Assembly: GCA_965261595.1 (NCBI GenBank)
Contig: CBDHDG010000007.1
Coordinates: forward strand, 256,001-320,000
Reading direction: 5' to 3'
Source: a bacterium
GTDB taxonomy: Bacteria > UBA8248 > JACPRG01 > G963555815
Length of the DNA stretch: 64,000 bases
This document shows, in pieces, positions 5,258-62,742 of the stretch. Every line of letters starts with the position of its first letter. The stretch's first letter is position 1. A model generated the notes under the pieces. The model did not search any database and was not told where the DNA came from. It worked only from the letters and a program-made list of their open reading frames with translations. The position numbers were made by a program, and so were the translations under genes.

Positions 5258-6397
5258 ATGCGCCACACCTTTCTCTTCACCGCCTGGCTCATGTGGCTTC
5301 TGTCGCACGCCTCGCGGATGGCCCTGGCCCCCGTCCTTCCGCTCATCGAGGATGACCTGGGGATCTCTCACGCCCAGGCCGGTCAAATCTTTGTCTTTCT
5401 TTCCATTGGATATTGCGGCGCGCTCTTCAGCGTCCCATTTTGGAGCCGGCTCCTCGGGTATCGGCGGACGCTGCAAGTCAGTCTGATCACGCTGACCATC
5501 GTGCTCTTCCTGATGCGTTGGGCGAACGGGGAGGCCACCATATCAACGCTCGCGTTTTTCATCGGCCTGGCTTCGGGGACGATCCTGCCATCGGCCATCC
5601 CCCTCATCACAGCCGCGTACGGTCGGGAGGTTTGGGGAAAGAGCATCGCCATCTTCGATTCGGCGGCCCCATCGGGTCAATTCCTCGCGCCGGTCCTCGC
5701 CGTTGTCATGCTGGCGATGTTCCCGTGGCGCTACATGTTCTGGGCGATGTCGGCCCTGTCTGTTTTGGTCCTGTGGATATTTCTGCGGACCGCCCCCACG
5801 GAAGAACCCAAGGCCGAGCGGGCGGGCGGGAGCATCATGGCCGTTATCCGCAACCGCAGCCTGGTCACGTTGGGATGCCTCTGGGTCCTGGCCTCCGGGG
5901 CGGCGCTCGGCGCGGCCTTTCTCATCCCGGTCTATCTGGTGAAGGAGCGGGGCCTGGAGCTGAGCGTGGCGAACCAGGTATTCGCGGCCGGTCGGGGAAT
6001 CGCCATCCCCTGCGCGGTGGCCGCGGGCTTGCTGACCGATAGGTTTCCCTGCCGGACTATCCTGGGTTGGGTCCTCGCCCTGGCGGGCGTCTCCCTGATC
6101 GGCGTCGCCCTTTGGCCGGGAAACGTCGGAGTGGGGGTTTGGGTCATCATCGAGGGGGGAGTGGTCAACATGTTCTTCCCGGTGGGCCTGATCCTCATCG
6201 CCCGGGTCACGGCGTCGGGCGTCCGGGGCGCGGCCACCGGGATCGTCATCGGCGCGGGAGCCGGATTCGGGATCGGTGTGACGCCGTGGCTCCTGGGAGC
6301 GGCGGCCGACGCATGGAGCTTTCAGGCGGGCATCTCCGTGTTGGGCGCCATGGTCATGCTGTCCAGCCTGTGCGTCCTGCGCATCGAGCGGGTATAA
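5258..6397 (+). CDS. MFS transporter (tandem paralog 1)
   Basis: 379 aa, about 12 hydrophobic segments, MFS loop motifs. Confidence 0.88.
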   Translation: MRHTFLFTAWLMWLLSHASRMALAPVLPLIEDDLGISHAQAGQIFVFLSIGYCGALFSVPFWSRLLGYRRTLQVSLITLTIVLFLMRWANGEATISTLAFFIGLASGTILPSAIPLITAAYGREVWGKSIAIFDSAAPSGQFLAPVLAVVMLAMFPWRYMFWAMSALSVLVLWIFLRTAPTEEPKAERAGGSIMAVIRNRSLVTLGCLWVLASGAALGAAFLIPVYLVKERGLELSVANQVFAAGRGIAIPCAVAAGLLTDRFPCRTILGWVLALAGVSLIGVALWPGNVGVGVWVIIEGGVVNMFFPVGLILIARVTASGVRGAATGIVIGAGAGFGIGVTPWLLGAAADAWSFQAGISVLGAMVMLSSLCVLRIERV

Positions 6398-6509
6398 GGA
6401 AGCCCGGAAGAAGGCTCCCTTGGATTTCGTCTCTTGACCCCAACCCGGCGGCCGGAGACTTGCCGACCGAGCGCACCCTTACGGACCTCACCGACTTGCG
6501 GGTTTTCTG

Positions 6510-7649
6510 ATGCGTCCCTCGTTTCTCATCACCGCGTGGCTCTTGTGGTTCGTGGCCCATGCCTCGCGGATGGTCATCCCCCCGGTCCTCCCCCTCATTA
6601 AGGAGGAACTGGGGATCTCGCACGCACAGGCCGGGCAAATCTTCACCTATTTGACCCTGGGATACTGCGGAGCGCTCCTCACCGTTCCGTTCTGGAGCCG
6701 GGTCCCGGGATACCGCCGGACGCTGAAAATCTCGCTGGCCGGCCTGACCCTCACCCTTTTCCTGATGCGATGGGCGACCGGTCTGAGGGCGATATCGGCA
6801 TTCGCGTTTTGCATCGGCCTGGCGACGGGAACCATCCTTCCATCGGCCATCCCTCTGATCACAACGGCTTACGGGAAGGAGCAATGGACCCAGAGCCTCT
6901 CCATCTTCAACTCCGCCGCTCCGACCGGCCAGTTCTTCGCGCCGATGCTCGCCATCGCCGTTTTGTCCATGCTCCCTTGGCGCTACCTGTTTTGGGCGAT
7001 GGCGGCGATTTCAGCCTTCGTCATGCTGATGTTCCAGAGATCCGCCCCGGTTGAAGATCCCCCCGCGGGCAAGCCGCAAGGGAGTATCGCGGCGGTGATC
7101 CGGGATCCCAACATGATCACGTTGGGCATCCTGTGGACACTGGCTTCGGCGGCCGGAGCCGGTCTGGGATTTCTTACGCCGGTCTATCTGGTCGAGGAAA
7201 GGGGTATGGACCTGGCCGTTGCCAACCCGATCTTCGCCGCGGGACGCGGGGCCAACATAATCGGCGCCATCTATGCCGGCTATTTGACGGAACGCTTCAC
7301 CTGTCGCAGCCTTCTGGGTTGGATCATGGCCCTCACCGGGGTTGCACAAATCGGGATCGCCCTCTGGCCGGAGAACATCGGTGTGAGCGTCTGGGTTTTC
7401 CTGGAATCGTTTATCAACCTGATGTTCTTCCCGGTGGGGTTTATCCTCATAGCCCGGATAACGGCGGAAAGCGTCCGGGGGGCGGCTGTAGGACTGGTCA
7501 TCGGTGTGGGAACAGCGCTGGGTTTCGGGGTGACGCCTTGGGTGCTGGGCGCCATCGCGGACGTGTACAGCTTTCAGGCGGGCATCGCCGGTTTGGGGGT
7601 GATCACGGTGCTTTCCAGTCTGGCTGTTCTGAGGCTCGATCCGCTTTGA
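6510..7649 (+). CDS. MFS transporter (tandem paralog 2)
   Basis: 379 aa, colinear and clearly homologous to the upstream MFS. Confidence 0.88.
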   Translation: MRPSFLITAWLLWFVAHASRMVIPPVLPLIKEELGISHAQAGQIFTYLTLGYCGALLTVPFWSRVPGYRRTLKISLAGLTLTLFLMRWATGLRAISAFAFCIGLATGTILPSAIPLITTAYGKEQWTQSLSIFNSAAPTGQFFAPMLAIAVLSMLPWRYLFWAMAAISAFVMLMFQRSAPVEDPPAGKPQGSIAAVIRDPNMITLGILWTLASAAGAGLGFLTPVYLVEERGMDLAVANPIFAAGRGANIIGAIYAGYLTERFTCRSLLGWIMALTGVAQIGIALWPENIGVSVWVFLESFINLMFFPVGFILIARITAESVRGAAVGLVIGVGTALGFGVTPWVLGAIADVYSFQAGIAGLGVITVLSSLAVLRLDPL

Positions 7650-7796
7650 GGGCCGGGGCGGTGTATGCTAAGGGTGTGGCTTGCGAAATCCCGGAATCGA
7701 TTGATGGGTTTCCTTCCGCCGAAGTAAAATTCCGGCGATTGCGGCTGGATTCTCCGTCTCGACCAACGGGCGGGATGAAAACATTAAGGAGACGCA

Positions 7797-12325: not shown

Positions 12326-12400
12326 AGGCGCGGGTCCCCCGCTCTAGGGTTTTGTTGGACACTCGATTGATCCATGATTCATGGAGAAAGGGGTGTCGCG

Positions 12401-12789
12401 ATGAACGAACAAAAGCAAGAGGGGGCTTTGGCGGAGGGCGCCCGCAGGGCGAACGGAGCCAAGGCCCCAGGGCATCGGCAGTGAGCGGGGTCGGTTCTCC
12501 TGCCAGGCGCAAGCGGGAGGCGGTCCTGCGTCTTTTGCGGGGCGAGAGCCTGGAGACGCTCTGCCGCGAGTTGGGCACGACAGCGGCTCGGCTTTCCGCC
12601 TGGCGCGAGGCGTTCCTTCGCGGGGGCGAGGCGGCGCTCAAAGCCCGCCCGGCGGATGAGCGGGACGAGGAGAACGCCCGGCTCAAGGCCAAGGTGGGCG
12701 AACTCACGATGGAGGGCGAGGTCCTGCGGGAGAAGATCGACCGCCTGGAGGCCGGCCGCCCTTTAGCCGGCAGGAGGTGGAGGCGATGA
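12401..12789 (+). pseudogene. IS3 orfA (HTH), 5' end apparently frameshifted
   Basis: RKREAVLRLLRGESLETLCRELG HTH; the RBS-preceded ATG 12401, the ERGRFS segment and the ARRK segment lie in three different frames. Confidence 0.6.
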
Positions 12790-13694
12790 GTCAGGCCCGC
12801 TTCACCTCCACGGGCAGAGCCTACGGCCTGAAGCGGGTGTGCGCCCTTTGGGGCTTGGCGCGCTCCACGGTCTACGCGCAACGGCGGCGAGAGGCGGTCC
12901 CCGTTCATGAACGCCCCACGCCCAATAAGCGCGGCCCTGTGGGCCCGTGCACCGATGCGGAACTCCTCGGCCACATCCGGCAGGTCCTGGAGGACTCTCC
13001 CTTCCATGGCGAGGGCTACCGCAAGGTGTGGGCGAGGCTGCGCTTCGCGGGCATCCGCACCAGCAAGGAGCGGATGCGTCGCCTGATGCGGGAGGCGGGG
13101 CTTCAGGCCCCCCACCGGGTGGGCAAACCCCGAGGTCCCAAGGCCCACAACGGGACCATCCGCACCGAGCGGCCCGACCGAATGTGGGGCACGGACATGA
13201 CGACGACGGTGACCACCGAGGAGGGGGTGGCCTCGGTGTTCGTGGCGGTGGATCACTGCTCGGTGGACTGCGTGGGGATCCATGCGGCCAAGAGCGGCAA
13301 CCGCTTCGAGGCCCTGGAGCCGATCCGGCAGGGGGTCGCCGAGCGCTTCGCCGGCTTGGAGGCGGACGTCGCCGAGGGGCTTAAAGTTCGTCACGACCAC
13401 GGCCCCGCCTATCTGTCCGATGACTTTCAGCGGGAGATCGCCTACCTGGGCATGACCAGTTCGCCCAGCTTCGTGCGGGCGCCCGAGGGAAATGGCTACT
13501 GTGAGTGGTTTATCCGCATCTTGAAGGAGAATCTCCTGTGGGTGCGCTCTTTCGCCACCGTAGAGGAACTGCGGTGGGCGCTGCTTGAGTTCAAGAACCT
13601 GTACAACCATCATTGGATTCTCGAGGGCTACGGCTACCGAACGCCGGCCCAGGCAAGGCAGGAAAAACTCGCTCAAGTTGCGGAGGCCGCATGA
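12786..13694 (+). CDS. IS3-family transposase OrfB (DDE/rve)
   Basis: GYRKVWARL, WGTDMT, RHDHG, GNGYCEWF; ATGA overlap with orfA. Confidence 0.92.
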   Translation: MSQARFTSTGRAYGLKRVCALWGLARSTVYAQRRREAVPVHERPTPNKRGPVGPCTDAELLGHIRQVLEDSPFHGEGYRKVWARLRFAGIRTSKERMRRLMREAGLQAPHRVGKPRGPKAHNGTIRTERPDRMWGTDMTTTVTTEEGVASVFVAVDHCSVDCVGIHAAKSGNRFEALEPIRQGVAERFAGLEADVAEGLKVRHDHGPAYLSDDFQREIAYLGMTSSPSFVRAPEGNGYCEWFIRILKENLLWVRSFATVEELRWALLEFKNLYNHHWILEGYGYRTPAQARQEKLAQVAEAA

Positions 13695-13902
13695 GGTCGA
13701 ATACCCTCACCCGAGTGTCCAATAACCCAGGGGCGGTCCACGGGATGTAAACAAAGTAAGCGGACCCTTCCGCACCCCACAACCCGGATCTCGGATTGAA
13801 CCCTTTGAACCATAATAGGTTAACCAAAAAAGGCGGGAGGAAGGCGTCCCCTTTTTATTTGGCATGCGCATTGAATAGAAGTTGATTCAGGGAGGAATTT
13901 CC

Positions 13903-35350: not shown

Positions 35351-35362
35351 TCGTTTTTCCGC

Positions 35363-35437
35363 TCAGTCGCGAGCGATGAAGATGCAGATAGCCTCAAGGT
35401 CATCGAAAGCCTGTGGCGTCCACCTTACTTAAGCCAT
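35363..35437 (-). pseudogene. RelE/ParE toxin remnant
   Basis: Reads MA*VRWTPQAFDDLEAICIFIARD*, resembling the intact toxin at 38152-38445; overlaps the antitoxin end. Confidence 0.75.
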
Positions 35438-35607
35438 CCAGCCATCCGCCGGCGGGCCTCCTCCTGACTGATCATCTCTCCACGGTTCGCTTGGCGAAGA
35501 CCCCTGTGAATCTTGTAGAGCAGGTATAGTCGGTCGATGGCGTCCCCAACACTGGCGTCGTCGGGCAGTTCTTCGATTGCCTTCAAGATCTGTTGCTTGG
35601 CTTCCAC
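35425..35607 (-). CDS. Putative antitoxin (RelE/ParE-associated)
   Basis: AKQQILKAIEELPDDAS...RGL...ISQEEARRRM; GGAGG upstream of the GTG start; homologous to 38433-38618. Confidence 0.75.
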   Translation of the reverse strand: MEAKQQILKAIEELPDDASVGDAIDRLYLLYKIHRGLRQANRGEMISQEEARRRMAGWLK

Positions 35608-35684
35608 AATGCACCCTCCCATCAAAGTTCAGCTATAGCGTAGCATGAACTCTGTCCGGGATCACTTCGCTTACCGCCGCGGGT

Positions 35685-35744
35685 GTATAACGACAGGCCT
35701 GAGCCGCGCGCGCAAGCGCGTCGGCCTCCAGGGGTTTGTTAGCG
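35685..35744 (-). other. attC site (60 bp)
   Basis: Minus strand CGCTAAC...GTTATAC with internal palindrome, 10 bp after a cassette stop codon. Confidence 0.88.
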
Positions 35745-35754
35745 CTGAATATGA

Positions 35755-36343
35755 TCACAATAACCCCACTCGGTATACGCGAGCATAGTGATCTCGTGGG
35801 AGGGACTTGGACAATACGCCAATTACGTGAGCGTCGAACTCCCCGCCAAGCGCGTTTGTGAAAGTCATGGGCTTACCCGCGAAATATTCCGGCCGGATGT
35901 CCATTTCAGCCCCAGAAGGCAGCCCGAAAAAATGTTCGTATCCGTTGCTCGGGTTTCTAAAGTAAACTGCCATCTCTTCAGTCGTCACATAGACGAAGTA
36001 GCAGGTGTCCTTTGTGGCTTCGTGTACCAAGAGAAGTCGGTGCAGATCTCGGAAGACGTATCCAGCTTTTCGCGTCTTGGGTTGATTCTTCCCGCCGGGC
36101 GGATCACGGTCGTACTTGAACTCGATGGCGATTGACTGCCCACCGTAGTTTGGCAACCAGGTATCAACGTACGCGCGAGGTATAGCGGGGTGAGGATACT
36201 CGAGAACAACGTCGTCAGGAGGAACCCCGTCATAAAGGAGGGCAGCAAAGAGTGTGTACCGGACCAGAATCTTCGGTTGTCACGACGCCCTTCTCGAGGC
36301 GCACCTCAAGAAGTCTGCCGAACTCTTGAAACACCTTGTTCAT
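35755..36343 (-). pseudogene. PD-(D/E)XK nuclease-like cassette gene with a frameshift near 36265
   Basis: MNKVFQEF...TTEDS/VRYT...LEYP...VDTW...AIEFK; one extra base separates the two frames; ATG abuts the GTTAGA core. Confidence 0.65.
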
Positions 36344-36353
36344 TCTAACTTGG

Positions 36354-36420
36354 GGGAATCTGGGGGACACCATACCTATTTCTCAAAGTCAAGAATTTAG
36401 TATGGTGTCCCTGGAATCCC
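36354..36420. repeat. ~67-bp palindromic element, copy 1
   Basis: GGGACACCATAC...GTATGGTGTCCC inverted repeat; near-identical to 38701-38767. Confidence 0.88.
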
Positions 36421-36430
36421 GTGCGGTCTC

Positions 36431-36733
36431 TCATCTTCGCTGTTTCCAAGTGTCCGGGTGACGGTGCATATGCAGAACGGCAAGGATGACTACTCGATTC
36501 GGCTTCGGTTCAGGCACGAAGTAGATACCGTAAGGAAAGCGACGTAACAACGCACGACGCATGCCTTTCTCAAGCTCAGGAAATTGGAGGGGATTTTCGG
36601 CAATTCTTGCAAAGACCTCCGTGAGGCCGTCCAGAAATCGAGTCCCGAGTCCGCGCTGTTGCTCCTCGTACCATAACGTAGAAATCTCAACGTCAAGTCC
36701 CGCTTCCGGCCGAAGAATCAGCGGCCACGCCAT
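36431..36733 (-). CDS. RelE/ParE family toxin
   Basis: LRPEAGLDV...WYEEQQRGLG...RRALLRRFPYGIYF...ILAVLH. Confidence 0.9.
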   Translation of the reverse strand: MAWPLILRPEAGLDVEISTLWYEEQQRGLGTRFLDGLTEVFARIAENPLQFPELEKGMRRALLRRFPYGIYFVPEPKPNRVVILAVLHMHRHPDTWKQRR

Positions 36734-36981
36734 TAGTCGGAGGGTTGGCCGCGAAGCCTGCCTCGCACTTCCTCCCGAACCTGCTCCCAGGTCTTTCCTT
36801 GTTCGGGTTCGGTCCGATAAGCCGCTAGCCTTTCATCTAAGACGCGCAAATGCCAGTTTGGAACGGGGACTTGCTGTGGGGTTGCCAGGATTCGCTCCCA
36901 AAGGGACTGCACATAGTCAATTTTCTCTTCCACCTGGAGTTCGTCGAACCCCGCTGGTGGGTTCGGCACAGCCTCGGCCAT
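36733..36981 (-). CDS. Addiction module antitoxin
   Basis: EEKIDYVQSLWERI...WHLRVLDERL...TWEQVR; GAGGAGG RBS; coupled to the toxin. Confidence 0.88.
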   Translation of the reverse strand: MAEAVPNPPAGFDELQVEEKIDYVQSLWERILATPQQVPVPNWHLRVLDERLAAYRTEPEQGKTWEQVREEVRGRLRGQPSD

Positions 36982-37057
36982 TATCTTATCCTCCTCAGAA
37001 GGAATCTACGCCGAAACATGCCAATTAGCAATTCTGGCGCTGCGGCCCTGCGAGCCG

Positions 37058-37105
37058 GGGTAACGGCTGCGCTCAGCTACCGACGGGCGAGCAACGCGAA
37101 CCCCC
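37058..37105 (-). other. Truncated attC (core GTTACCC plus one arm)
   Basis: TAACGGCTGCGCTCAGCT.. arm typical of attC, fused directly to the antitoxin duplicate. Confidence 0.6.
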
Positions 37106-37229
37106 GGTCCGTTTGGCGAAGGCCTCTGTCAATCTTGTAGAGCAGGTAGAGTCGGTCGATGGTGTCCTCAACACTGGCGTCGTCGGGCAGTTCTTCGATT
37201 GCCTTCAAAATTTGTTGCTTGGCTTCCAC
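37077..37229 (-). pseudogene. Truncated second copy of the 35425-35607 antitoxin
   Basis: VEAKQQILKAIEELPDDASVEDTIDRLYLLYKIDRGLRQ, then runs into attC sequence; toxin absent. Confidence 0.8.
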
Positions 37230-37307
37230 AATGCACCCTCCGATCAAAGGTCAACCATAGCGTAGCATGAACGCTATCCGGGGCCACCTCGCTTACTCGC
37301 CACGGGT

Positions 37308-37404
37308 GTATAACGACAAAGTTCAGCAGTCGGGGTCGCCGAGAGACGCTGACGCGCGCAGAAACCAGTGGGCGGCCCCGGTCTGCTGCAACGCCATGTT
37401 AGGC
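37308..37404 (-). other. attC site (97 bp)
   Basis: Minus strand GCCTAAC...GTTATAC with long paired arms (GTTGCAGCAGACCGGGG / CCCCGACTGCTGAAC). Confidence 0.92.
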
Positions 37405-37411
37405 GCGGCCC

Positions 37412-38044
37412 TTACTCCACACGCTTGTACACGCTGTTCAAGAAGAACAAGAACAAAGGCGTTTTTTCCGACGCTGAGGGCATGCACGCCTTCAAGGACC
37501 CTGCCATCTCCACCACGACGTTGCACGCCCACCGGGCAACCGCTCGCGTGCTGATCTGACCGAGCCAAGATGCCGTCACTTTCGGCCCGAAATCTTCGCA
37601 GAGATCCTTTGCTCGGAGGCGCTGGAGAATCTTGTGCGGCTCTCCCGTAATATTTTCCGGCATCATGTGGATGATGGCATCCCGCATGGAAAAAAGAGTA
37701 TCGAAGTCTTGATAAGGTTGCGAACCCTTATCGTAGCTCTCGCCCCCAAGCACAACCTTGGCGAGAAGAAACTTGAGCCGAATCTCCCCTCTGGAAGCCT
37801 CTGTCTCATCGAGGATCGCCGCGACCGACTGGAGCGGTTTGTAACCGAATAGCGCCGAGTCGGATTCCGCCATTAAAGCAAGTTCCATGACGAAGGCTTC
37901 GAGCGTTGCGGCCGAAAAGAGAATTGCGACCAAGACGTCGTTTTCCGCGCTGGTCTTGTCAGGCGGTGCAGACTTCAGGCGTTCGCAGGCTGAAACTGCA
38001 ACGCCGAAGAGGATGCCAGAGTTTAGGAAGTAGCCGCCCATCAT
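37412..38044 (-). CDS. HEPN-like cassette protein
   Basis: Helical protein with upstream TLEAF and RxxxxH motif RDAIIH; GGAG RBS. Confidence 0.65.
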   Translation of the reverse strand: MMGGYFLNSGILFGVAVSACERLKSAPPDKTSAENDVLVAILFSAATLEAFVMELALMAESDSALFGYKPLQSVAAILDETEASRGEIRLKFLLAKVVLGGESYDKGSQPYQDFDTLFSMRDAIIHMMPENITGEPHKILQRLRAKDLCEDFGPKVTASWLGQISTRAVARWACNVVVEMAGSLKACMPSASEKTPLFLFFLNSVYKRVE

Positions 38045-38058
38045 TGCATCTCCACGCC

Positions 38059-38147
38059 GCCTAACGTTAGCGATGACCAAGCGGGCCGGCATAGGTAGAA
38101 GAGCAGGGTTTTAGGCATAATCCCGTCTGTCCATTACATGGTTATGC
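38059..38147 (-). other. attC site (89 bp)
   Basis: Minus strand GCATAAC...GTTAGGC, 4 bp after the toxin stop codon. Confidence 0.82.
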
Positions 38148-38151
38148 GCGA

Positions 38152-38445
38152 TCAGAGCTGATACTTGCTGATATCGAGCGAACCGTGGAAGACACCCAGG
38201 ACATCGATGTTCCGCCCATCCTTGATCAGATAGGCGATGCGGTAGTGGCCGTAGAGGAGAATCCGTACATGGCGGCTCGCTCCCCAATAGCGATGCCCCA
38301 TCTCAGGAAAGTCAGCCAGCACCTGCGTCCGCTCGTAGATGCCGTTGACGGTTTGGGCAGCCGCGTGCGGATTATCCTGGGCAATGTACTCGAAGATGTC
38401 CTTGAGCCAATGCTGAGCCTCTGCGGTCCAAGTTATCTCTGCCAT
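38152..38445 (-). CDS. RelE/ParE family toxin
   Basis: ITWTAEAQHWLKDIFEYIAQDNP...FPEMG...YRIAY...LGVFHG. Confidence 0.92.
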   Translation of the reverse strand: MAEITWTAEAQHWLKDIFEYIAQDNPHAAAQTVNGIYERTQVLADFPEMGHRYWGASRHVRILLYGHYRIAYLIKDGRNIDVLGVFHGSLDISKYQL

Positions 38446-38618
38446 GAGCGGATGCGTCGCGCCATCTCATCATTCGAGATGACTCGGCCCGCGTCTGAGT
38501 CAGTAAGCCCCCGCTCGACCATGACGTGAAAGGCCAGTTCACGAACGATCTCGTCGCGCGAGCTGTCCTCCGGTTGCTCTTCGATGAGCTTCGTCAGTTC
38601 TTGCTTCGCTTTCGACAT
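38433..38618 (-). CDS. Putative antitoxin
   Basis: Overlaps the toxin start; VERGLTDSDAGRVISNDEM; GGAGG RBS. Confidence 0.82.
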   Translation of the reverse strand: MSKAKQELTKLIEEQPEDSSRDEIVRELAFHVMVERGLTDSDAGRVISNDEMARRIRSWQR

Positions 38619-38677
38619 AGGCCACGCCTCCAGTCTGCCTTGAATCTTGTCACACTCAAAGAATACGATCAAATAGC

Positions 38678-38791
38678 AGATAACGACCCTGGCGTTCAGC
38701 GGGAATCTGGGGGGACACCCTACTTATTTCTCAAAGTCAATAATTTAGTATGGTGTCCCCGAATCCCGGCAGATTCAGCAGCTTGTTAGCT
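38678..38791 (-). other. attC site interrupted by the palindromic element
   Basis: Minus strand AGCTAAC...GTTATCT cores retained; centre occupied by 38701-38767. Confidence 0.75.
38701..38767. repeat. ~67-bp palindromic element, copy 2
   Basis: GGGGACACCCTAC...GTATGGTGTCCCC; differs from copy 1 at only a few positions. Confidence 0.88.
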
Positions 38792-38801
38792 AGGCAGCGT
38801 A

Positions 38802-39467
38802 TCATATGGTCCTGTGGCCTCGTCCATCATGGGACACTACTACGAGAGCCCACAAATTGGTGGACAACGCCATTTCGAGGGCAGCGATGTGTGCAAATGC
38901 CCTATAATTGTGCAGTATAATTGATTCGGCGAAGGTCTCTCCTATCACGTTGACGGGAAGCGCGTCCCGCATCGCATGATGCCAGGAAAAGAACCCATGC
39001 GATTTGAATGGACCCTCCTGCTCATATGCGATGGCTACTAGAATGTTCTTCAGCAAACGACATATTTGCCCACGCCACGCCTCGGGAAGCGGGTTCTGTT
39101 TGTCCCAAGCCGAGGCCGCCATGAACACAGCAGCCTGCATCTCAGGATCATCATCACAAGCTTTTAGAAGTTCAGCAGTGTGGAGCGTGCCCTTCTTGAT
39201 TTTCCAGTAGGCGCCGAAAGTGCCGTCACGTGTAAGGGAAACCCGCCGCGTCGGGATTTCAGCGGTCGGCCACCAATCAATGATGCCAGAACCAATTCGG
39301 AGTCCATTCTTCGGGGAGGAAACGGGGACCTCCTAGAATCGGACCGGAAGGGCTGCATCGAATCCCAACGTCATGCACGCAATCCGCCACGCGGAATACA
39401 GGTCAGGCCAACTCGGAGAAACGGGGGCTTGATGTTCGCCACGTTTACGCATTTGACTCTCTGGCAT
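38802..39467 (-). pseudogene. Hypothetical cassette gene with one in-frame TAG (39333-39335)
   Basis: ATG directly after the GTTAGCC core; frame stays open to 38802 apart from one amber codon. Confidence 0.7.
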
Positions 39468-39644
39468 GGCTAACATTGTTTATATCGATCCGCATAACAC
39501 CCCAAATGCCGTGTCGATTGCCGTATAAGACGCCTGCGCAAAAGACAACGTTCGGGCATAACCAATGAGATATCACCTGTTGCGTCGAGGCGCTGTTCTT
39601 ATCACGGTGTTTTATACGGATCGGCATAAACCCTCATGATAACC
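39468..39644 (-). other. Long, degenerate attC-like palindrome
   Basis: GTTAGCC core; arms TTTATATCGATCCGCATAACACC / GGTGTTTTATACGGATCGGCATAAA. Confidence 0.55.
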
Positions 39645-39652
39645 TCAGAACA

Positions 39653-39736
39653 CATCGACGGGGCTGCGGAGCAGCGGCGGGAGGACTCGCAAGCTCGCTC
39701 GCGTGGACGACCGTTCGCTGCAGCCGCTTGATGGCC
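39653..39736 (-). other. Degenerate attC (both cores mutated)
   Basis: attC-like arms (GCAGCGG / CGCTGCAGCCGC) with GGCCATC and GTCGATG in place of the AAC/GTT cores. Confidence 0.55.
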
Positions 39737-39762
39737 GGCGCACCGAATCAAACGCTTTTGGC

Positions 39763-40215
39763 TCATATCGTGAGGTCGACTTCACAATCAAGGACGTGAA
39801 GGAGTGACAACAACGGGTCTATGGATTTGCGGTAATTCGTCTGATCGAGAAGTCGGTAGAATTGGGCCGCGGAAGTGCCAAGCCGCCGTATGATCTCCCG
39901 CTTGGACAACGGGCTGGCATCCACCCGTTTTTGAGCCTCGATGGTCAATTTGTAAAGGAGCAGATCTCTCAAATACCTGGGGTCCTGGTTGTATTCAAGG
40001 ACCTGCTCGATGTGAACTGTCCCCTCTTTGCCCGATTCCAGGACGTAAGTGAAACCTTCCCGGCCTAACTCCTTATCCACAAACACCCGGTCGATAGGGT
40101 CTTCGGCCGTCGGCTTTGGATTGACCTTGGCATAGGGAAAAACCAAGGTCTTAGCCGAGGCCGTCACCTCGAATGCTTTCTTTCGGTTGTTGTATGTGAC
40201 AGATCGGATCTTCAT
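39763..40215 (-). CDS. Putative antitoxin with C-terminal XRE-type HTH
   Basis: LSKREIIRRLGTSAAQFYRLLD; ATGA overlap with the upstream gene. Confidence 0.75.
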   Translation of the reverse strand: MKIRSVTYNNRKKAFEVTASAKTLVFPYAKVNPKPTAEDPIDRVFVDKELGREGFTYVLESGKEGTVHIEQVLEYNQDPRYLRDLLLYKLTIEAQKRVDASPLSKREIIRRLGTSAAQFYRLLDQTNYRKSIDPLLSLLHVLDCEVDLTI

Positions 40216-59703: not shown

Positions 59704-60132
59704 ATGACCATGCCGGACATCAAACCGCATTTGAAGCTGACGCAAGATGGGGCCCTGAAGATTTTGAACGCGGCCATCCAAAAGGCGGATGAAATGGGCC
59801 AGCCGCAGTGCATCGCCGTCGTGGACGACGGGGGGCACCTGCTGGCGTTCGTCCGGATGGACGGGGCGAAAGTCATGAGCATCGATTCTTCAACGCGGAA
59901 AGCGATGACGGCGTCTTCGAGCCGCGTCCCCACCAGCGGGGTGTCGAAGGACAACGAGCTGAAGCTCGCCCACGCCACAAGCGGCAAACTGACGAACCTG
60001 AAAGGCGGCCTCCCCATCATCATCGACGGTCACGTCGTCGGAGGGATCGGCGTCGGCTCCGGGACGGGCGAACAGGACCTCGAAGTCGCCAAAGAGGCGC
60101 TGAAGGCGGTGGAAGGGACGCAGGAGTTTTAA
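59704..60132 (+). CDS. GlcG/HbpS family heme-binding protein
   Basis: IAVVDDGG, RMDGA, KAMTA, GGLPI, GGIGVGSG. Confidence 0.9.
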   Translation: MTMPDIKPHLKLTQDGALKILNAAIQKADEMGQPQCIAVVDDGGHLLAFVRMDGAKVMSIDSSTRKAMTASSSRVPTSGVSKDNELKLAHATSGKLTNLKGGLPIIIDGHVVGGIGVGSGTGEQDLEVAKEALKAVEGTQEF

Positions 60133-61825
60133 CCCGCATTTCCCATATGGATGATAATTTTTAACGCCCCGAAGGCCGTTTTCTCGTGTAAAATCAAAGT
60201 GTTGGCCTCTCCCTGCCATCATCTTGCGAGGGGACCCGATGGGTGAAGCGAAAAAGAGGCCGTTGAGGCTCCAATTCGACGGTCGGCTCAGGCTGGAGTT
60301 TCACGGAGCAAAGGTTACGAGTGACGCCGGTTTGCTTGCCTATCGTGAACTGGATGAGGTGTTGGGGCTGACGAAGGCGGCCGAGGGGTTTCTGTCCGAT
60401 TCACGGACGGGCGGGAACACCCGGCACAGCCTCACCGCTTTGGTGCGCCAGTCGGTCTACAGCCGCCTGGCAGGATATAAAGACACCAATGATGCCGAGC
60501 GGCTCTGTGTCGATCCCGCCATGCGTCAGGTGGTTGGGGGGCGAGCGAAGTATCACACCGCTGCCTCCACCAGCCAGATGAGCCGATTCGAGACGCAGAC
60601 CCTCACCCGGCCCCTTAACCTCAAGGCGCTGAGCGGTCTGCCCGGTGTGTTGGTGGATCGTGTCCGCAAACGCAAGCCGATTCGCAAGCTGATCCTGGAC
60701 ATGGACAGTTCGGTCAGCCCGACCCACGGTGAGCAGGAAGGCTCTTCCTACAACGGCCACTTCGGCTGCACCTGCTATCACCCACTGTTTTGCTTCAACC
60801 AGTTTGGCGATCTGGAGCGGGCGCTGTTGCGCAACGGCAAGGTCCACAGCGCTGATGACTGGTGGTCTGTATTGGAGCCGGTGGTAGCTCGCTACCGGGA
60901 TGCGAAGGTCTGTCGGTTTTTTCGAGGCGACGCGGCATTTGCCAAGCCGGAGGTGTACCGATACCTTGAGGCGGAGGGCTACTCCTATGCGATTCGGCTT
61001 CCGGCCAACGCCATCTTGTACAGGGACATCGAATGCCTTCTGACCCGGCCGGTTGGCCGACCGCCCAAAAGGCCCATTATCTTCTACCACAGCGTCTCCT
61101 ATCAGGCGGCTAGTTGGGAGAAGCCTCGCCGGGTGGTGGTGGCGGTCGAGTGGCACCAGGGCGAGTTGTTTCCAAGAGTCAGCTTCATCGTGACCAACCT
61201 GCACTGGCGGGAAGAGAACGTCGTGAGGTTCTACAACCAGCGTGGGACGGCGGAGCAGTGGATCAAGGAGGGCAAGTACGCCCTGAACTGGACGCGCCTG
61301 TCCTGCCACGGCTTTGAAGAGAACCAGGTCCGCTTGCAACTATTTGCCTTGGCGTACAACCTGGCAAACTTCCTGCGGCGGCTGGCGTTGCCCAGAGCGG
61401 TGAAGCACTGGTCGCTGACGACGTTACGCGAGAAGCTGATTAAGATTGGGGCCAAGGTGGTCACCCACGCCCGGTACACCACCTTCCAGATGGCCGAGGT
61501 GGCCGTGCCGCGTCAACTGTTCAGGGCAATCCTTGAACGAATTCGACGGTTGTGGTTACCGCCTCCCGTACCAGATACCGGATGACGGAGCAGATGGCCC
61601 GGAAGCTTAGTGACGTGGTGGAGACGGGGGATCAGTCTGCGCCGAACTCCCCTGAGTGTGCCGGTAGAGCTGGGTTTTCAAGGGATTGCGGCTTTAGGAC
61701 GGCCGTTGCCCCTCGATTGAGCAGAGGGTTCTGCAAAGAGACCCTGAATCTGTAGTAAAATGGGGTACTTTGATGACACAGGAGGACCGCAGGATGGCTA
61801 AGAGTGGTCATCTGGGAAATCCCGG
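60133..61825 (+). mobile_element. IS1380-family insertion sequence (1693 bp)
   Basis: IRs CCCGCATTTCCCATATG / CATCTGGGAAATCCCGG; TTTAA direct repeat at 60128-60132 and 61826-61830. Confidence 0.93.
60239..61585 (+). CDS. IS1380-family transposase
   Basis: [34 protein letters not shown]. Confidence 0.95.
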
Positions 61826-62045: not shown

Positions 62046-62434
62046 TAGACAGGCACCGGGCATCATCGCTTGATTCTCTCCAAGATAAGGGCAAATGTCT
62101 TCCTGGATACACCGACCTCGGCCAACTGGAAGGTGATGTGGCGGGCGTACCGCACGAGCCGGCCGCCCATTTTGAGGAGCTTAAGCTGAAGGCCGCGTAA
62201 CGACCAGTGCTTGATCCCTCTCGGCAGGCCAGCAATCCCGCATCCGAAGTCATTCTGGTTCCGTGAAACTCAAGCCTCAGCCGACGCTCAAAACGGACCT
62301 TCAACGCCCACTTTTTCGCTTCACCCATTGGATTACCCCGCGAGAGGATGGCTCGGGGAGGCTCATGCATTGATTTTACTCCAGAAAATGTCCTCCGGTC
62401 CGACAAAAGTTATGATCCATATGGGATATCTGGG
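62046..62434 (-). mobile_element. Internally deleted IS1380 derivative
   Basis: Left IR CCCAGATATCCCATATG after TTTAA; MGEAKK...[11 protein letters not shown] joined directly to KHWSL...ITFQLAEV; right end not found. Confidence 0.82.
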
Positions 62435-62742
62435 TTAAACCGAATCTCACGCCGGGGCATACGCCCTGACGGGGCGGGGGGGGGCGAGGGAGTCGCTTGC
62501 CTTTTTGAGACTTGCCCATTCTTGCCGGTGAGGATTCCCGGGGAACAGTGTAGCGCGCCCTTGCGCTGCGCCGCTTATGTCAGATGGCTTGCAAATCACA
62601 CGTGAGCCGATTCCTCGCTATTCCCGGTGGCGCCTTTCTGATTCTCCCCACCATCCATACAATATATCATTACAAATCAATAGGTTAATAAGACATCACT
62701 CGGGATCAATGATTCGGCTTCAAAAATAACCCATCTTTTTTC

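Follow-up and report, generated by a model that had tools for sequence, protein, structure and literature searches.

The window analysed here is the whole stretch of 64,000 nt at positions 256,001–320,000 of contig CBDHDG010000007.1 (C7:256001-320000 in our numbering) of the source assembly GCA_965261595.1, denoted G000, which comprises 6.17 Mb in seven contigs. It contains an accessory island of small minus-strand genes (35356..40207) in which lie two near-identical elements of 67 nt, copy 1 at 36354..36420 and copy 2 at 38701..38767, both in the plus orientation. We consider that both are probably REPINs, that is, hairpin-forming doublets of repetitive extragenic palindromic (REP) sequences, belonging to a system of this lineage that is built around a REP-associated tyrosine transposase (RAYT), and that they came to lie in a decayed array of integron cassettes by local spread and not by seeking out attC sites.

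In copy 1, end type A of a RAYT unit (GGGGACACCATAC followed by TATTTCT) is fused to end type B (inverted AGGGACACCATAC followed by TAAATTCTTGACTTTG), and copy 2 lies in the same orientation. Repeat pairing joined 36362-36411 to 38710-38759 (50 nt, 94% identity), blastn aligned 59 nt of the two copies at 93% identity, and each copy, folded as single-stranded DNA (ssDNA), formed one long hairpin on either strand, with −13.1 to −15.5 kcal/mol and z −3.1 to −4.3, a stability equalled by 0 or 1 of 200 shuffles. The pair of near-identical elements described in the initial annotation of this DNA is confirmed by these three approaches, as is its remark that the 64 kb hold no third copy, the 13-mer core GGGGACACCATAC at two mismatches or fewer matching only these four arms. 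A segmental duplication is excluded because the sequences flanking the two copies are unrelated. Both copies share a one-base loop deletion (AAAG where others read AAAAG) that is missing in four other long-loop copies, including those of the related genomes G003 and G006, which belong to other genera. No direct repeat indicative of a target-site duplication abuts copy 1 or copy 2, although inverted ends are present, and the elements thus fall outside the classical definition of a MITE (miniature inverted-repeat transposable element). Rfam returned no family at gathering scores and, in E-value mode, a single chance-level miRNA match (E 2.9), and a scan for promoters and terminators gave nothing attributable to either hairpin.

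Across G000, the 13-mer core has 26 exact occurrences, where 0.26 would be expected, and a further 26 that differ from it at one position, and the resulting 52 arms group into 31 clusters, revealing local clustering. These numbers do not bear out the earlier idea of an element private to attC sites. When oriented, the arms fall into two types, A running on as TTATTTCTGCTTATGCCCCC and B as TTAATTCTTGACTTTTGGCTTGCG, with GGAATYNN outside both. Short hairpin doublets are present at ten loci of the genome, four with a long loop as in the window and six with a 16-nt loop. Many arms are preceded by two or three tandem units of 9–10 nt, GGGAATTAA or CCAGGGATT, that repeat the arm's own outer end, as at C7:712270-712300, C6:211790-211816 and C6:1110555-1110584; the outer end can also pair with an inner TTAATTC to form a small stem of 7–8 bp around the conserved core.

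The same arms, in inverted orientation, bracket a transposase gene. An intact RAYT gene of 222 aa (C6:336180-336845) is flanked by arms at C6:336164(+) and C6:336900(-), which together delimit an autonomous unit of ~737 bp with ends of the form GGAATYNN-GGGGACACCATAC. The encoded protein matched Pfam Y1_Tnp at 46.8 bits (cut-off 23), and the sole structure it matched in the PDB was 4ER8, the TnpA-REP of E. coli (E 6.8e-6), in an alignment that includes the HUH and tyrosine regions; all eight family members that were aligned have the motifs PNHxH and RYxExNPVR unchanged. Alongside this single intact gene, G000 holds 20 further partial matches, and its decayed units of ~260–420 bp keep both arms. 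The window element forms the extreme of this deletion series, a fusion to which end A contributes ~21 nt and end B ~29 nt. The suggestion that the hairpin is a non-autonomous, REP-like element tied to a HUH/Y1 transposase was therefore well founded, and the question raised along with it, whether the repeats flank such a transposase elsewhere, is answered by the GGGGACACCATAC arms found inverted around the 222-aa RAYT and around several decayed copies. A separate mobile element interrupts one REP unit at C6:1663886: this is a copy of a 1404-bp insertion sequence (IS) with two overlapping open reading frames (ORFs), apparently IS3-like, another copy of which lies in the window at 12335-13741 (C7:268335-269741) and which occurs in very many copies of 99–100% identity on all seven contigs.

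To place the family in a wider setting, a set of 41 genomes (G000 and 40 relatives) was surveyed, together with a phylum set of 51 species genomes that includes G000. A 16-mer arm, at one mismatch or fewer, was found 38, 9, 8 and 9 times in G000, its congener G001, G003 and G006, respectively, once in each of two more genomes and in none of the other 35, with 0–1 matches per genome for the reversed 16-mer used as a control. RAYT homologues (E ≤1e-20) were present in G000, G001, G006 and G014, whereas G003 has arms and no RAYT match at this threshold. Metagenome contigs yielded at least 129 exact matches to a 21-nt arm pattern. From these, 80 loci on 76 contigs were retrieved with their flanks by the arm alone; 35 of the loci contain a distant inverted arm pair, 4 a short hairpin and 24 a RAYT match, and the 7 with a full-length RAYT (64–67% identity) show inverted arms bracketing the gene in the same manner. 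The assignment to the REPIN-RAYT class is based on these four features combined, namely dispersed arms, hairpin doublets, a RAYT with inverted arms, and co-occurrence of repeat and gene.

Under this assignment, internal deletion of the autonomous ~737-bp unit would have given rise to the units of 260–420 bp and ultimately to the 67-nt form. By analogy with TnpA-REP and IS200/IS605 enzymes (PMC8266576), the RAYT would act in trans on folded arms in ssDNA, cutting and rejoining them, probably during replication and without producing target duplications. Copies 1 and 2 would be sisters, one most likely derived from the other, or both from one master, by local spread, a view resting on their shared one-base loop deletion and on the local clustering of the family. 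Their placement may be accounted for by that clustering together with a tolerance of short non-essential spacers in accessory DNA.

The island that accommodates the two elements has a G+C content of 0.54–0.58, compared with ~0.60–0.66 outside, and is absent from the same PhoD / DUF4160 locus of the congener G001, where the PhoD side joins the DUF4160 stop codon directly. Its right border (window 40208-40215) falls within that stop codon, TGA here and TAA in G001 (C12). The DUF4160 gene is accompanied in the island by an overlapping helix-turn-helix (HTH) partner gene; G001 lacks this partner, an indication that DNA was deleted there and not inserted here. Two putative toxin–antitoxin pairs adjoin the hairpins. 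The first consists of a ParE/RelE-family toxin gene of 100 aa (36431..36733, minus strand; Pfam ParE_toxin, 26.4 bits), whose stop codon is separated from copy 1 by 10 nt, and an antitoxin of 82 aa annotated as an addiction-module component (36733..36981, minus strand; Pfam Unstab_antitox, 51.5 bits; TIGR02574, 35.1 bits). The second pairs a ParE/RelE-family toxin gene of 97 aa (38152..38445, minus strand; Pfam ParE_toxin, 61.4 bits) with a putative antitoxin of 79 aa (38433..38672, minus strand), which is assigned by position alone, has no family match and starts 29 nt from copy 2. Several other ORFs of the island also lack a family match, among them a frameshifted ORF in three pieces (35755..36343, minus strand) that begins at an ATG right after GTTAGA and for which the earlier label of a nuclease cassette was not confirmed. 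A small cassette of 195 nt (35480..35674, minus strand) is duplicated, being 90% identical to 37102-37296, and the homology begins at a shared TGTCGTTATAC, which, as read from the sequences, is the end of the preceding attC site, as should be the case for integron cassettes. Elsewhere in the window, a 230-nt direct repeat (6170-6399 / 7422-7651, 71%) and a 221-nt inverted repeat (60128-60348 / 62219-62439, 74%) are unrelated to the REPINs.

Recombination sites in the island were scored with a covariance model, R1. Starting from IntI1 of plasmid R100, 80 integron loci were gathered, from which our own scanner picked 47 distinct attC sites on the array side; the model was built from 25 aligned sites of 60–84 nt and represents 16 basal pairs (R boxes, three pairs, bulge, six pairs). 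At four integron loci outside the training set it recovered 10 sites of 25–51 bits, all on the array strand. R1 is home-made and trained on IntI1-type sites; the E-values it gives are rough, and it may overlook attC sites that are divergent. A nine-pair attC signature was used in addition, at least 8 of the 9 pairs being present in 44 of the 47 true sites. By these measures a canonical attC lies at 37308..37404 on the minus strand (28.2 bits, E 2.8e-4, filters off); it is the sole site with all nine signature pairs among 9782 candidate core pairs in the genome, and its layout comprises GCCTAAC, a 5-nt spacer, GTT, a bulged G and CAGCAG, followed after the central part by CTGCTG, AAC, a 6-nt spacer and GTTATAC. 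A second, short attC of 59–60 nt (35685..35743, minus strand; 22.6 bits, E 5.3e-3, signature 7/9) likewise ends in GTCGTTATAC. Past the second ParE toxin gene, a weak attC-like site of the form GCATAAC ... GTTAGGC (38059..38147, minus strand) did not reach significance (10.9 bits, E 2.3, signature 6/9). The 11 marked gene boundaries (b0–b10) include two significant attC sites by R1 and one weak one. An R1 search of the whole genome, in which 150 of 9227 candidates were scored and the 28-bit site of the window was not recovered, gives no count of attC sites for the genome. A lone attC-like site outside the window (C6:1291475-1291546, 23.3 bits) lies ~250 bp from an IS copy and has no second within 20 kb.

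The two significant sites are on the same strand and 1.56 kb apart, well within the spacing by which a cluster of attC sites lacking an integron integrase (CALIN) is recognized, namely two or more attC sites inside 4 kb where an integrase is missing. None is encoded near the island. The best score of an IntI model in G000 was 78.5 bits, against a cut-off of 265 bits, and no integron integrase was detected in the 41-genome set or in the 51-genome phylum set; two integron-bearing genomes searched as a positive control gave 460–482 bits. Judged from its sequence, the island at 35356-40207 is a decayed, integrase-less cassette array, that is, a CALIN, because it combines two attC sites on one strand with the lack of an integron integrase. 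For the latter reason, the immobilization of cassettes that the initial annotation attributed to the hairpins cannot matter here, neither G000, its 40 relatives nor the 51 genomes of the phylum having an integron integrase.

Whether the two hairpins actually occupy attC sites can be read from their boundaries. Copy 2 sits in a boundary at 38678..38791 (minus strand) that shows an R''-like AGCTAAC and an R'-like GTTATCT 114 nt apart, each core with mismatches. Its 3' flank, GCTGAAC..GTCGTTATCT, is similar to the corresponding half of the attC at 37308-37404, and nowhere else in the genome does the motif TAACGAC..GTTCAGC occur exactly. The sequences on either side of copy 2 fail to pair with each other, with 4 of 9 signature pairs in a manual count, and R1 gave no match at E ≤10, filters off, for the boundary of either copy. 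The earlier statement that copy 2 lies in the middle of an attC whose cores survive thus holds insofar as R''- and R'-like cores bracket it, and fails insofar as the two halves remain unpaired and unmatched by the model. For copy 1, which was said to replace an attC of which a GTTAGA core is left, a GTTAGAA indeed occurs 4 nt beyond the element, directly before an ATG, and nothing else at that boundary resembles an attC. Since most of the boundaries b0–b10 lack a detectable attC whether or not they hold a REPIN, its absence is not special to the REPIN boundaries. Uninterrupted alleles of the two sites, which the initial annotation had proposed to look for, were not found among the 41 genomes.

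The position of copy 2 between AAC and GTT cores, and the fact that sedentary integrons carry near-identical attC sites, might be taken to mean that the hairpins are simply the lineage-specific variable regions of the array's own attC sites. We find this scarcely credible, given that the same sequence flanks the RAYT gene and recurs in 31 clusters and in many metagenome contigs without attC, and that the true attC sites of the array, at 37308-37404 and 35685-35743, have unrelated stems.

Several observations, in this lineage and in the metagenomes, weigh against the interpretation of the elements as REPINs placed by local spread. No clean pair of filled and empty sites was found for the REPINs, whose loci lie in repeat-rich, rearranged DNA, so that their mobility is something we infer, and one REPIN is orthologous between G000 and G001. 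The best and sole NCBIfam match of the RAYT protein, NF047646 (REP-associated tyrosine transposase), scored 69.6 bits, below the equivalog cut-off of 80 bits. With its several decayed RAYT units, the family looks more like an IS than classical systems do, where the RAYT is single-copy; in the classical scheme, RAYT groups 2 and 3 are single-copy and vertically kept. The right edge of copy 1 is, in addition, the exact border of homology with a fragment in G001 (C49:21982-22087), a stretch of 106 bp that matches the ParE/RelE gene at 36431-36733 over its 3' end with 96% identity, which points to a rearrangement there. On account of this coincidence, REPIN borders may be rearrangement points. No attC match was found beside the fragment in G001, and a ParDE homologue in the relative G032 has a different context.

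The homology breakpoint at the edge of copy 1 would also agree with an origin of both copies in which cassette boundaries recombined or underwent gene conversion with one another, without RAYT-mediated transposition, for example by an exchange between two older REPINs that removed the intervening cassettes and left hybrid boundaries. The flanks of copy 2 look like the halves of two different attC sites, and the array holds other duplications and varies between congeners. Nevertheless, the sequences beside copy 1 and copy 2 are not homologous, and a conversion would have to be confined to exactly 67 nt; the genome-wide family would be left unexplained as well. We therefore regard this origin as quite improbable, while noting that it is compatible with the elements being REPINs rather than opposed to it.

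The remaining observations concern attC sites as a target. The initial annotation proposed a miniature element whose hairpin prefers folded attC sites, which it would consequently replace or disable, and named many genome-wide copies without enrichment at attC sites as the result that would speak against the proposal. Many genome-wide copies do exist; on the other hand, both copies in the window lie at cassette boundaries of an array holding the only clustered attC matches found. Under uniform placement, the probability that at least one of the 31 clusters lands in the 4.85-kb array is P = 0.024. The cores bracketing copy 2 and the homology of its 3' flank to that of a real attC fit such a preference, as do REP dimers inside palindromic targets, described in other bacteria by Di Nocera et al. 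2013 (PMC3733652). The limited collection of literature searched yielded no description of an attC with a REP or REPIN inside it.

Outside the window, the family gives little sign of this preference. Among 25 other REP loci (9 in G000 and 16 in G001, G003 and G006), none had a full-model R1 site at E ≤1 with filters off; the sole matches, at E 0.9, were partial, involved a 39-nt stretch at two places in one locus (L152) and lay in at least one case inside an IS3-like copy. When 242 distinct arm flanks of genomic and metagenomic origin were compared, AAC was not concentrated at a particular distance from the core. A TAACAAGC shared at 24 nt from the core by the left side of copy 2 and one metagenome unit was accordingly set aside as a coincidence. 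An attC (E ≤0.01) within 1.5 kb of an arm was found on 2 of the 76 metagenome contigs and on none of the other 74, a proportion that seems to exceed a rough base rate.

In metagenome contig Ga0209514_10000040 (96710-106534, L178–L181), where ORFs were called with a simple home-made caller as on the other metagenome contigs, six successive ORF ends are each followed either by an attC (two cases, canonical, 36 and 32.7 bits) or by a REP/RAYT-relic unit of ~270 bp (four cases), and the same alternation, ORF-attC-ORF-REP unit, recurs at locus L185. REP/RAYT units would thus fill the place of the attC behind an ORF in two metagenome contigs. This co-location of REP units with cassette arrays is more than we can explain with confidence and stands as a hint. 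Mini units in Ga0209514_10000040 are inserted inside RAYT units, and self-targeting or local spread explains the clustering. A spacing twin to that of this array was observed in Ga0082335_1000171.

Collectively, these results do not support attC as a general target of the REP family, and the proposal that the element targets attC hairpins is not sustained: an attC match was obtained at none of the 25 other loci and, at E ≤0.01, on only 2 of 76 contigs, no fixed AAC offset emerges from 242 flanks, the host boundaries go unscored by R1 with halves that are not complementary, the distance to the GTT core differs between copy 2 (16 nt) and copy 1 (4 nt), and no uninterrupted allele turned up in 41 genomes. 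We accordingly hold an attC-targeting miniature element to be unlikely. A broader version, in which the REP-RAYT family truly prefers cassette arrays, its units entering ssDNA hairpin-forming attC regions and replacing them until the arrays become attC/REP mosaics (here, in Ga0209514_10000040 and in Ga0315288_10006592), strikes us as doubtful, with some small chance of being right. REPINs of the lineage's own REP-RAYT system, spread locally within a decayed CALIN, remain the probable explanation.

Identifying the repeat as a REPIN with its RAYT gives a name to a sequence with a wide occurrence in environmental metagenomes and in a small phylum that has received little study. The deletion series, which is complete from the transposase unit down to the 67-nt hairpin, bears on the origin of REPINs from IS200-like elements. 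For integron annotation, the case illustrates a trap, in that an 'attC-like' palindrome within a cassette array can be another selfish element. If a preference for arrays were real, the family would represent a third class of attC-array invader, with its protein acting only in trans, beside IS1111-attC elements and group IIC introns, and would reveal a new decay route, in which recombination sites disappear from cassette arrays.

Comparison with known systems places both the array and its hairpins. The term CALIN, as defined above, comes from the IntegronFinder work; the array resembles such clusters in its small co-oriented genes, including toxin–antitoxin pairs, in its one duplicated cassette and in the lack of IntI, and differs in its strong decay, with most boundaries lacking a detectable attC and at least one gene frameshifted. 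The known attC invaders are IS1111-attC elements and group IIC-attC introns, which encode a DEDD transposase or a reverse transcriptase and occupy a fixed position and orientation in attC. Like them, the hairpins are found in a cassette array; unlike them, they measure 67 nt, contain no ORF and differ in their insertion points, and their family lies mostly outside attC. REP dimers in palindromes (PMC3733652) share the position of REP doublets in the middle of a palindrome, although a defined target palindrome recurs there, whereas no common target was apparent in the 242 flanks examined here.

Elements of the IS200/IS605 family and their miniature derivatives, the palindrome-associated transposable elements (PATEs), have in common with the present family a Y1 HUH enzyme, single-stranded hairpin ends, internally deleted non-autonomous copies and the lack of target duplications. 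The unit described here differs from them in its terminal inverted repeats of 13–20 nt and in its 222-aa RAYT-type protein with a C-terminal extension, whose best family and structure matches are to TnpA-REP and not to IS200 TnpA. Relative to the REPIN-RAYT systems known from E. coli (REP sequences and bacterial interspersed mosaic elements, BIMEs, with the TnpA-REP of 4ER8) and from Pseudomonas, the conserved core is no GC-rich palindrome and no GTAG tag was seen; a doublet draws one arm from each of the RAYT unit's two differing ends, in the style of a MITE; several decayed RAYT units replace one domesticated copy; the protein scores below the NCBIfam equivalog cut-off; and the host belongs to a small phylum (51 species genomes) and, as far as the data show, is not a proteobacterium. 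The likeness to these systems extends to the absence of visible target duplications, to short dispersed repeats whose inverted doublets form hairpins, to the co-occurrence of repeat and gene, and to a Y1 HUH gene lying between inverted copies of the same repeat.

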